The position numbers and the translations under genes were made by a program. DNA of 64,000 nucleotides from Escherichia coli (lineage in GTDB: Bacteria > Pseudomonadota > Gammaproteobacteria > Enterobacterales > Enterobacteriaceae): the NCBI RefSeq assembly GCF_013122565.1, contig NZ_CP053258.1; one strand, 5' to 3'. Shown piece after piece: positions 8,105-37,533 of the stretch. Position 1 is the first letter of the stretch; each line of letters starts with the position of its first letter. The notes under the pieces are model-generated. The model was not told where the DNA came from. It searched no databases and worked only from the letters and a program-made list of their open reading frames with translations.

Positions 8105-8143
8105 CCGAATGGCGGCGCTATTGCCGCCATTCGGTTATTTATT
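8105..8143 (+). terminator. Rho-independent terminator after ssuB (hairpin shared with convergent pepN)
   Basis: 12-bp perfect stem CCGAATGGCGGC / GCCGCCATTCGG with 6-nt loop, followed by TTATTTATT. Confidence 0.6.
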
Positions 8144-10754
8144 AAGCCAGTGCTTTGGTGATCTTCTCGTACAGATCGCCAGAGAGATTTTCCAGCCCTT
8201 TCAACTGTTCCAGCGCCGCGCGCATTTTCTCCTGACGTTTGGCATCATAACGTTTCAGGCGAATCAGCGGTTCAATCAGACGTGAAGCTACCTGCGGGTT
8301 ACGGCTGTTGAGGTCGGTAAGCATTTCCACCAGGAACTGGTAACCGCTGCCATCTTCGGCATGGAACGCTGCCGGGTTGCTGCCCGCAAACGCACCAATC
8401 AACGAACGAATACGGTTCGGGTTGCTCATGGTAAATGAGCGATGCTGCAACAGACCACGCACCGTCTCCAGCACATTCGCCGCCGGGCTGGTGGCTTGCA
8501 GGATAAACCATTTATCCATCACCAGACCATCCTGATGCCACTTGTCGTCGTACTCCTGCATCAGCGCGTCACGGCAAGGCAGCTGTGCAGCAACCGCCGC
8601 AGAAAGCGCTGCCAGCGCATCGGTCATATTGTTTGCTTCATGGTATTGCTTGCTCACCAGCACGTCAGCCAGATGCGTTTCACCAAAAGCAAGGAAGCGC
8701 AGGCAGGCATTACGCAGAGTGCGTTTTGCAATATCTTCATGCTCAACACGGTACTCGCTCTGGTAATTCGCGTTGTAAATAGCCAGGAGCTCATCCGCCA
8801 GTTCAGTCGCCAGAGTACGAGTGAGTGCTTCGCGTACTTCGGCAATAGCAATCGGGTCGATGATATCGAACAGTTCAGCCATTTCATTGACAGAAGGCAG
8901 CGTCAGGATTTCTGCCGCCAGCGCCGGATCAATCTTCTCATCGAGCAGCACCGCGCGGAAAGCGTCAGCCACATGTACCGGCAGAGACAGCGGCTGCCCT
9001 TGCTGATGACGGGCGACGTTCAGCTTGATGTAGGTTGCCAGCAAACTTTGCGCCGCATCCCAACGGGAGAAATCATTACGCGCATGACGCATCAGGAAGG
9101 TCAGTTGCTGATCGCTCCACTTATATTCCAGTTTCACTGGCGCAGAGAATTCGCACAGCAGCGCAGGCACCGGCTGGAAGTAGACATTATCAAAAACAAA
9201 GGTCTGTTCCGCCTGAGTGACGTTCAGCACGGAATTCACCGGATGACCGCCTTTCTGCAACGGGATCACTTTGCCTTCGTTATCATACAGTTCGATGGCA
9301 AACGGAATATGCAGCGGCTGTTTTTCTGCCTGATCCGGCGTGGCTGGCGTGCGCTGGCTGATGGTCAGGGTGTACTGCTCGGTTTCCGGATTGTAGTCGT
9401 CTTTGACGGTCACAACCGGCGTACCGGACTGGCTGTACCAACGGCGGAAATGGGAGAGATCGACATTCGACGCATCTTCCATCGCCTGCACAAAGTCGTC
9501 GCAGGTTGCCGCGCTACCATCATGGCGCTCGAAATAGAGTTGCATCCCTTTCTGGAAGTTTTCCTCGCCAAGCAGGGTGTGGATCATGCGAATCACTTCC
9601 GCGCCCTTCTCGTAAACGGTCAGGGTGTAGAAGTTGTTCATCTCAATGACCATATCCGGGCGGATTGGGTGCGCCATCGGGCTGGCGTCTTCCGCAAACT
9701 GCAATCCGCGCATGGTGCGCACATTATTGATGCGGTTAACTGCACGGGAACCAAGGTCAGAGCTGAATTCCTGATCGCGGAAGACGGTTAAACCTTCTTT
9801 CAGGCTGAGCTGGAACCAGTCGCGGCAGGTCACTCGGTTACCGGTCCAGTTATGGAAATATTCATGGCCGATAACGCGTTCAATATCGAGGTAATCTTTG
9901 TCGGTGGCAGTATCGGTGCGGGCCAGCACATATTTGGAGTTAAAGATATTCAGCCCCTTATTCTCCATTGCGCCCATATTGAAGAAATCCACCGCGACGA
10001 TCATATAGATGTCGAGGTCATACTCCAGGCCAAAGCGTTCTTCATCCCATTTCATGGAGTTTTTCAGCGAGGTCATCGCCCACGGCGCGCGATCAAGGTT
10101 GCCGCGATCGACGTACAGCTCCAGTGCTACTTCGCGACCAGAACGCGTGGTAAAGGTATCGCGCAGTACATCAAAGTCGCCTGCCACCAGCGCAAACAGG
10201 TAGCACGGTTTCGGGAACGGGTCCTGCCACTGTACCCAATGACGTCCGTTTTCCAGTTCGCCTTGTGCAACGCGGTTACCGTTGGAAAGCAGGAAGGGAT
10301 ATTTGGTTTTATCGGCAATAATTTTGGTGGTAAAACGAGCCAGTACGTCCGGGCGGTCGAGATAATACGTAATGTGGCGGAAACCTTCGGCTTCACACTG
10401 GGTGCAAAGCGCATCGCCTGACTGATAAAGCCCTTCCAGCGCCGTATTCGCCGCCGGGCTTATTTCATTAATGATCTTAAGCGTAAAACGCTCCGGCAAA
10501 TTACTGATGACCAGTGCGCCCTCTTCTTCTTTCCAGGCGGTCCACGGCTCATCATTAATATGAACAGAAACCAGTTTGAGGTCTTCGCCGTTGAGACGAA
10601 GCGGAGCATCTGATGCACCATGACGGACAGCCTGGCTGACCGCGGTAACGACCGTCTTTTGCGCGTCGAGGTCAAAGGTCAAGTCAATATCAGTAATCTG
10701 GTAATCCGGCGCACGATAATCGTGACGGTATTTGGCTTGTGGCTGTTGAGTCAT
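8142..10754 (-). CDS. pepN: Aminopeptidase N
   Basis: 870-aa ORF MTQQPQAKYRHDYRAPDYQITD…; M1 zinc motif HEYFHNW…E present. Confidence 0.97.
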   Translation of the reverse strand: MTQQPQAKYRHDYRAPDYQITDIDLTFDLDAQKTVVTAVSQAVRHGASDAPLRLNGEDLKLVSVHINDEPWTAWKEEEGALVISNLPERFTLKIINEISPAANTALEGLYQSGDALCTQCEAEGFRHITYYLDRPDVLARFTTKIIADKTKYPFLLSNGNRVAQGELENGRHWVQWQDPFPKPCYLFALVAGDFDVLRDTFTTRSGREVALELYVDRGNLDRAPWAMTSLKNSMKWDEERFGLEYDLDIYMIVAVDFFNMGAMENKGLNIFNSKYVLARTDTATDKDYLDIERVIGHEYFHNWTGNRVTCRDWFQLSLKEGLTVFRDQEFSSDLGSRAVNRINNVRTMRGLQFAEDASPMAHPIRPDMVIEMNNFYTLTVYEKGAEVIRMIHTLLGEENFQKGMQLYFERHDGSAATCDDFVQAMEDASNVDLSHFRRWYSQSGTPVVTVKDDYNPETEQYTLTISQRTPATPDQAEKQPLHIPFAIELYDNEGKVIPLQKGGHPVNSVLNVTQAEQTFVFDNVYFQPVPALLCEFSAPVKLEYKWSDQQLTFLMRHARNDFSRWDAAQSLLATYIKLNVARHQQGQPLSLPVHVADAFRAVLLDEKIDPALAAEILTLPSVNEMAELFDIIDPIAIAEVREALTRTLATELADELLAIYNANYQSEYRVEHEDIAKRTLRNACLRFLAFGETHLADVLVSKQYHEANNMTDALAALSAAVAAQLPCRDALMQEYDDKWHQDGLVMDKWFILQATSPAANVLETVRGLLQHRSFTMSNPNRIRSLIGAFAGSNPAAFHAEDGSGYQFLVEMLTDLNSRNPQVASRLIEPLIRLKRYDAKRQEKMRAALEQLKGLENLSGDLYEKITKALA

Positions 10755-10972
10755 AAATAACCTTTAGCATCTTTTATAGAGTCTGGTGTTCAGTCTATTC
10801 CTGTTGCGTAAATCGCGCTATGCAGAATCTTCATCTTTTCAGGTACAAACGCCTTTATTGCTACATTTTTATAACATACACCGCGTAATGCCATCGACCA
10901 GAAAGGTGGCATATGGTGTGATCGGGGTTCAATAAATTGCGAAACAAGGTATACTCCAGCAGTTCCTGAAGA

Positions 10973-10990
10973 TGTTTATTGTACTAAACG
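10973..10990 (+). promoter_or_regulatory. Putative NadR operator in pncB leader
   Basis: TGTTTA-ttgtac-TAAACg matches the NadR box TGTTTA-N6-TAAACA; lies 30 nt upstream of the pncB start codon, just downstream of a TATACT -10-like hexamer (10950..10955). Confidence 0.5.
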
Positions 10991-11019
10991 CTCCTGTACG
11001 AGGACGCTACTGCGCACCT

Positions 11020-12222
11020 ATGACACAATTCGCTTCTCCTGTTCTGCACTCGTTGCTGGATACAGATGCTTATAAGTTGCATATGCAGCAAGCCGTGTTT
11101 CATCACTATTACGATGTGCATGTCGCGGCGGAGTTTCGTTGCCGAGGTGACGATCTGCTGGGTATTTATGCCGATGCTATTCGTGAACAGGTTCAGGCGA
11201 TGCAGCACCTGCGCCTGCAGGATGATGAATATCAGTGGCTTTCTGCCCTGCCTTTCTTTAAGGCCGACTATCTTAACTGGTTACGCGAGTTCCGCTTTAA
11301 CCCGGAACAAGTCACCGTGTCCAACGATAATGGCAAGCTGGATATTCGTTTAAGCGGCCCGTGGCGTGAAGTCATCCTCTGGGAAGTTCCTTTGCTGGCG
11401 GTTATCAGTGAAATGGTACATCGCTATCGCTCACCGCAGGCCGACGTTGCGCAAGCCCTCGACACGCTGGAAAGCAAATTAGTCGACTTCTCGGCGTTAA
11501 CCGCCGGTCTTGATATGTCGCGCTTCCATCTGATGGATTTTGGCACCCGTCGCCGTTTTTCTCGCGAAGTACAAGAAACCATCGTTAAGCGTCTGCAACA
11601 GGAATCCTGGTTCGTGGGCACCAGCAACTACGATCTGGCGCGTCGGCTTTCCCTCACGCCGATGGGAACACAGGCACACGAATGGTTCCAGGCACATCAG
11701 CAAATCAGCCCGGATCTAGCCAACAGCCAGCGAGCTGCACTTGCTGCCTGGCTGGAAGAATATCCCGACCAACTAGGCATTGCATTAACCGACTGCATCA
11801 CTATGGATGCTTTCCTGCGTGATTTCGGTGTCGAGTTCGCCAGTCGGTATCAGGGCCTGCGTCATGACTCTGGCGACCCGGTTGAATGGGGCGAAAAAGC
11901 CATTGCACATTATGAAAAGCTGGGAATTGATCCACAGAGTAAAACGCTGGTTTTCTCTGACAATCTGGATTTACGCAAAGCGGTCGAGCTATACCGCCAC
12001 TTCTCTTCCCGCGTGCAATTAAGTTTTGGTATTGGGACTCGCCTGACCTGCGATATCCCCCAGGTAAAACCCCTGAATATTGTCATTAAGTTGGTAGAGT
12101 GTAACGGTAAACCGGTGGCGAAACTTTCTGACAGCCCTGGCAAAACTATCTGCCACGATAAAGCGTTTGTGCGGGCGCTGCGCAAAGCGTTCGACCTTCC
12201 GCATATTAAAAAAGCCAGTTAA
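11020..12222 (+). CDS. pncB: Nicotinate phosphoribosyltransferase
   Basis: ORF 10972..12222; start at [24 protein letters not shown] (400 aa). Confidence 0.94.
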
Positions 12223-37450: not shown

Positions 37451-37533
37451 AGTGCTTGATTACAGGACGAAACCTGCAATCTGTCAAGTAAACTCAACAA
37501 ACTTCGGAATAAAAATCCCGAAGAGTCAGAGAA

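Follow-up and report, generated by a model that had tools for sequence, protein, structure and literature searches.

A NadR-type operator in the transcribed leader of pncB, in the gap between the divergent genes pepN and pncB of Escherichia coli

The gap between pepN and pncB in Escherichia coli contains an 18-bp inverted repeat that resembles the binding site of the repressor NadR, and it raises two questions: whether NadR represses pncB by way of this repeat, and where it lies relative to the promoters of the two genes. We addressed both in a window of 64,000 nucleotides (the whole stretch of E. coli DNA that was analysed, to which coordinates refer unless stated otherwise). The inverted repeat at 10973-10990 is very probably the operator for NadR repression of pncB. 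The observation made in a first-pass annotation of this DNA is thus confirmed and its interpretation as a NadR operator is supported, with the geometry corrected to +12 to +29 of the pncB transcript. The element itself is already known, and its regulation is textbook material and not a new finding. The discovery value is accordingly little, and what is added is a coordinate-exact map of the operator against the pncB and pepN starts.

The 801-bp stretch around the repeat is 100% identical to that of strain TB06052, and similar sequence, carrying the pepN and pncB annotations, recurs in 5425 of the 5426 complete E. coli genomes. The two coding sequences are placed both by the list of open reading frames and by the RefSeq annotation of the identical strain and of K-12:

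8142..10754, minus strand: pepN coding sequence, aminopeptidase N, the divergent neighbour
11020..12222, plus strand: pncB coding sequence, nicotinate phosphoribosyltransferase, 400 aa

With the pepN ATG at 10754 and the pncB ATG at 11020, the intergenic gap spans 10755-11019. The first-pass description of pepN and pncB as divergent and 265 bp apart agrees with both sources.

The operator consensus of NadR is a palindromic 18-bp TGTTTA-N6-TAAACA, to which NadR binds as a dimer, NAD serving as corepressor (PMC2330246, PMC2330245). NadR represses pncB, which is listed among its targets together with nadB, nadA and pnuC (PMC12421817, PMC5343134), and the membership of pncB in the NadR regulon is described as variable (PMC5343134). 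Gel shifts published in 2025 covered the nadB and nadA promoters only (PMC12421817). We take NadR recognition of the consensus, repression of pncB and the role of NAD as corepressor from this literature; our own analysis concerns the sequence of the box, its uniqueness, its position relative to mapped transcription starts, its conservation, and the presence of a NadR with a helix-turn-helix. Residues 7-59 of K-12 NadR form an HTH_3 domain, after which come a cytidylyltransferase-like (adenylyltransferase) domain and an AAA_28 (kinase) domain, and the nadR gene is found in 5424 of the 5426 complete E. coli genomes. Repression of pncB by NadR through a box of this kind has been known since the 1990s and belongs to the standard E. 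coli regulon annotation. The original work on the operator at pncB is reportedly that of Wubbolts (1990), Penfound and Foster (1999) and Gerasimova and Gelfand (2005), the last of which is said to have catalogued it. This exact site is presumably the pncB NadR operator catalogued for K-12 and Salmonella in RegulonDB and RegPrecise; on that assumption, the catalogued operator and the window site are the same element, with no difference between them. The exact 18-mer returned no paper from the searchable full-text literature.

The element is as follows:

10973..10990, no strand assigned: NadR operator (NadR box), very probable; TGTTTA-TTGTAC-TAAACG; unique top-scoring match, conserved, fitting the published consensus

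On the plus strand the box reads TGTTTATTGTACTAAACG and leaves 29 nt before the pncB ATG. The first-pass annotation thus placed it correctly upstream of the start codon, at a distance (30 nt) that our measurement does not reproduce. Eleven of the twelve specified positions of TGTTTA-N6-TAAACA are matched, the exception being the final base of the right half-site, where the box has G and the consensus A. The form TGTTTA-N6-TAAACG occurs exactly once in the 64-kb window, at pncB, and in none of 100 shuffled windows. When TGTTTA-N6-TAAACA is searched with at most one mismatch, the pncB box is again the sole site in the 64 kb, against 0.13 expected, and 12 of 100 shuffled windows contain at least one such site; at two mismatches there are five sites in the window, a number within chance. 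Extrapolation from the window to the whole E. coli genome gives about nine sites of this quality expected by chance. A motif match by itself would not suffice to call a NadR operator.

A second comparison uses known NadR sites. For a scan of the 64 kb we derived a small weight matrix from the nadA and nadB sites plus the niaP site published for Proteus, and the pncB site was kept out of it. The pncB box ranks first with 17.5 bits, whereas 30 shuffles reach a maximum of 16.5 bits and a mean maximum of 12.4 bits. A scan of this kind had been proposed in the first-pass annotation, and its claim of a NadR-type operator in the gap is borne out by this top score and by the sole exact match. The second-best match, TGTCAAGTAAACTCAACA at 37482-37499 (14.5 bits), falls between minus-strand open reading frames of 557 aa and 94 aa, which by size are probably rpsA and ihfB. 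Its score lies inside the shuffle range, and we therefore treat this match as probably due to chance.

The position of the box relative to the pncB promoter follows from two published start-site maps, which place these features:

10927..10932, plus strand: pncB -35 element GTTCAA (PATSER -35 GGGGTTCAA), a weak match, spacer 17 bp
10950..10955, plus strand: pncB -10 element TATACT (PATSER -10 GGTATACT, Mendoza-Vargas 2009 Table S1)
10962, plus strand: pncB transcription start, a G (Kim 2012 and Mendoza-Vargas 2009)
10962..11019, plus strand: pncB leader, 58 nt, holding the operator and the Shine-Dalgarno sequence GAGGA (11000-11004)

Table S1 of Kim 2012 gives a single pncB start at K-12 position 989637, with 180 reads and a 5'UTR of 58 (PMC3415461), and its 51-mer aligns exactly to the window, which sets the start at G10962. 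Table S1 of Mendoza-Vargas 2009 likewise has pncB starting at -58 from the ATG, with a distance of 17 between -35 and -10, in a row flagged 'Known' with promoter distance 0 (PMC2760140). The two independent datasets thus agree on a start 58 nt ahead of the ATG. The pncB promoter assignment rests on these published data. A scan of 10600-11200 for consensus promoters and terminators gave no match, the pncB promoter being missed because its -35 element is poor and falls below threshold.

Relative to this start the NadR box covers +12 to +29, with its centre at +20.5, and so lies within the transcribed leader. The first-pass annotation had the box immediately downstream of the -10 hexamer, which does not hold: between TATACT and the box there are 17 nt, within which the start at 10962 falls, so that the operator follows the start and is not adjacent to the -10. 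The mapping of the operator against each promoter, which the same annotation had called for, can in this way be given from published starts.

Some minor features of the leader may be noted here. An ATG at 10972-10974, in frame with pncB, overlaps the start of the operator and gives rise to a mechanical open reading frame of 416 aa; it is only 10 nt past the transcript start, and the annotated start differs. The distance of 15 nt from the Shine-Dalgarno GAGGA to the pncB ATG is unusually long, and a small CGC-UACU-GCG hairpin is possible between the two.

Transcription towards pepN is more dispersed, with four starts listed in Table S1 of Kim 2012 (PMC3415461):

10861, minus strand: strongest pepN start, 12 reads, 107-nt leader, extended -10 TGTTATAAA ending at 10868
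10785, minus strand: pepN start, 7 reads
10754, minus strand: pepN start, 7 reads, at the ATG itself
10970, minus strand: minor start in the pepN direction, 5 reads, 216-nt leader, -10 TACAAT at 10983..10978

These starts agree with the earlier suggestion that the pepN promoter shares the gap with the box. The centre of the box is at about -120 of the main start at 10861, and given this distance of about 120 bp an effect of NadR on the main pepN promoter is unlikely. The minor start at 10970 lies next to the operator. On the minus strand the box reads CGTTTA-GTACAA-TAAACA, and its spacer forms the TACAAT found at -13 to -8 of this start, with the box as a whole covering -3 to -20. If real, the 10970 start would be occluded by NadR, its five reads being thin evidence; it may be noise, or it may mark a NadR-sensitive antisense or long-leader pepN transcript.

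We next consider how the box is conserved. One genome per species was scanned, yielding 80 Enterobacteriaceae pncB loci with protein identities of 82-98%. In 54 of these 80 other loci the same 18-mer, with at most one or two changes in the spacer, precedes the ATG by 28-29 nt, and its carriers include Escherichia, Salmonella, Citrobacter, Enterobacter, Lelliottia, Leclercia, Kluyvera, Kosakonia, Phytobacter, Pluralibacter and Pseudocitrobacter. Among the box-bearing loci identity reaches at least 90% in each of the 18 columns, the spacer and the final G included, while most columns of the 10 nt just upstream (10963-10972) are less than 50% identical. A conserved island of this kind beside a variable stretch is the signature of a protein-binding site. 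The -10 element TATACT is also nearly invariant, with at least 90% identity in each column across the window and the 80 loci. Among E. coli genomes, the 78 bp from promoter to ATG are identical in 5404 of 5425.

The remaining 26 of the 80 loci lack the left half-site and retain the -10, the start region and the 3' leader (AAACGCTCC...GAGGA...). The 3' part of the box (AAACG...) is conserved even in these species, and part of the conservation of the box is therefore due to another constraint on the leader. From the retention of the 3' leader in the 26 box-less loci it follows that the final G of the box is an older leader feature onto which the operator was fitted.

The E. coli-type box is absent or relocated in Klebsiella and Raoultella, Atlantibacter, Mangrovibacter and others. 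Nine loci from Klebsiella, Raoultella and Trabulsiella (L037, L040, L051, L055, L056, L058, L059, L062 and L064) are without the E. coli-type box and have 62 bp inserted upstream of the conserved -10. A different palindrome that resembles a NadR site, TGTTCAATATATTAAACT, lies about 138 nt before the pncB ATG in loci of these genera. The end of the insertion also supplies a better -35 (GGGACA), the region concerned being about 75-140 nt before the ATG. In Enterobacter sp. Ag1 the leader box is absent and a perfect box, TGTTTAGTACTCTAAACA, is found 179 nt upstream of pncB (L077, positions 2805-2822), where the upstream neighbour is a same-strand open reading frame and not pepN. Gain, loss or relocation of the NadR site at pncB has therefore occurred several times, in agreement with the variable regulon membership described for this gene (PMC5343134). 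One large group of Enterobacteriaceae keeps the site invariant, and in others it is replaced or has moved, which makes it a small example of regulatory-site turnover within a conserved gene pair.

Other readings of the palindrome have to be weighed against these observations. Since the box is transcribed within the 58-nt leader, and a stem of six A-U and G-U pairs closed by a 6-nt loop is possible, the palindrome might be an RNA hairpin that controls the stability or translation of the pncB mRNA. This reading is barely credible: the hairpin is worth just -2.0 kcal/mol (z = -0.94), the full leader shows no gain in folding over shuffled sequence (z = 0.15 and -0.05), and an Rfam scan gives no family matching the leader. 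Moreover, conservation is equally strong in loop and stem, with no sign of compensatory changes, a pattern that fits a protein-DNA site. We therefore reject an RNA-structure reading of the box and of the leader, their folding energies being no better than those of shuffles. It is also very improbable, if slightly less so, that the sequence serves mainly as the core of a weak divergent promoter for the long-leader pepN transcript, with its likeness to a NadR box incidental. Such a promoter would account for the Kim 2012 start at 10970 and for the TACAAT at the appropriate distance from it. However, this start has 5 reads against 180 for pncB and is without a recognisable -35, the conserved unit is the full 18-bp inverted repeat and extends beyond the hexamer, and pncB is a documented NadR target (PMC12421817, PMC5343134). 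Any promoter role of TACAAT is at most secondary.

The palindrome could finally be a functionless product of chance, given that an expectation of 0.13 sites at up to one mismatch per 64 kb amounts to several per genome, and that the second-best matrix match is itself within the shuffle range. Against this, the box sits in the leader of an NAD-salvage gene, its matrix score exceeds that of all shuffles, and it is invariant over many genera beside a fast-evolving stretch. We regard the probability of a chance origin as negligible, and the conservation pattern has effectively refuted it.

Returning to the NadR operator, the reading of the box as a site of NAD-responsive repression of pncB, which the first-pass annotation had also proposed, is supported by the match to the consensus, the listing of pncB as a target, the location in the leader, the invariance of the box and the helix-turn-helix of NadR. 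When NAD is plentiful, NAD-bound NadR, a trifunctional protein acting as helix-turn-helix repressor, NMN adenylyltransferase and ribosylnicotinamide kinase, would occupy the operator, with a dimer on the two half-sites TGTTTA and TAAACG if the binding mode described in the literature applies. From its position at +12 to +29, bound NadR would hinder RNA polymerase, either by clashing with the contacts that the polymerase makes with downstream DNA or by blocking promoter escape. We infer such steric or roadblock repression, acting on the open complex or on promoter escape, from the location of the site near +20. A block at the single strong pncB promoter would lower the amount of nicotinate phosphoribosyltransferase. 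When NAD is low and NadR is ATP-bound, the operator would be vacated and salvage derepressed.

Comparison with known operators places the pncB site within a family and also sets it apart. The pncB box of K-12 (NC_000913.3, 990386-990403) is identical to that of the window. The nadB and nadA-pnuC operators of E. coli and Salmonella share with the pncB box the common 18-bp TGTTTA-N6-TAAACA near the start of an NAD-synthesis gene. In K-12 the nadA box, TGTTTAGCATATAAAACA, has one mismatch to the consensus and the nadB box, TGTTTAGTAAATTAAACA, has none, and each sits a short way ahead of its gene. Taken from the minus strand, the spacer of the pncB box begins with GTA, as in the nadB and niaP sites. 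Unlike the nadA and nadB operators, the pncB site has G in the last position and lies inside the leader. The nadA box is upstream of the one nadA start in Kim 2012 and ends at -37, whereas the pncB box is downstream of its start. A further difference is that nadB carries more than its main box, with a second and weaker box upstream and an isolated half-site. In the K-12 nadB upstream region these are TGTTTAGCAACTGTAACA at 523-540 and a lone TGTTTA at 558-563 (coordinates of locus L003), both upstream of the main box, which ends 6 nt before the nadB ATG.

A parallel outside the regulon is the lac operator O1, centred at +11, which like the pncB box is a palindromic repressor site just downstream of the start and overlapping the polymerase footprint. 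The two differ in their repressors, LacI in one case and an Xre-type HTH_3 protein fused to enzymes in the other, and in position, the centre of the pncB box being further downstream. To our knowledge, no auxiliary operators of the kind invoked in a lac-type comparison have been shown at pncB.

A possible additional half-site was noticed upstream of the box:

10941..10946, plus strand: candidate extra NadR half-site GAAACA, at -21 to -16 of the pncB promoter, between -35 and -10; status uncertain

The hexamer reads GAAACA in the window and TAAACA in most other genera. The form [T/G]AAACA is present in all 55 sequences that have the box, one of them the window, and is missing from all 26 that lack the box, and the association involves 5 parsimony changes on the pncB tree. 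Many neighbouring promoter positions, however, co-vary identically with the box, so the association of the half-site is non-specific. We reject this co-variation as specific evidence for a second half-site, the linked positions representing two promoter haplotypes. The co-occurrence of [T/G]AAACA with the box, together with the doubling of the spacer as a TACAAT -10, still allows a reading in which NadR binds cooperatively over the pncB core promoter and ties the minor long-leader pepN transcript to NAD status, which we consider unlikely.

Elsewhere in the gap, an invariant TGTGATC (10917-10923) is found just upstream of the pncB -35. As a CRP site it fails, since compared with TGTGA-N6-TCACA its right half, TTCAA, has three mismatches, and the pattern TGTGA-N6-TCACA at up to two mismatches has no match anywhere in the gap. 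The sole match of an Rfam scan of the gap is the PepN 5' UTR thermometer RF02779 (10725-10852, minus strand), which is sub-threshold. This candidate was also rejected: it scores 21.3 bits against a gathering threshold of 83 with several non-standard pairs, and the match spans the pepN leader and first codons and is driven mostly by coding-sequence homology. In four blocks of the gap (10791-10806, 10818-10842, 10861-10876 and 10912-10935, the last of which includes the TGTGATC) conservation over the window and the 80 loci is about 90% or more, and they are kept also in the genomes without the NadR box.
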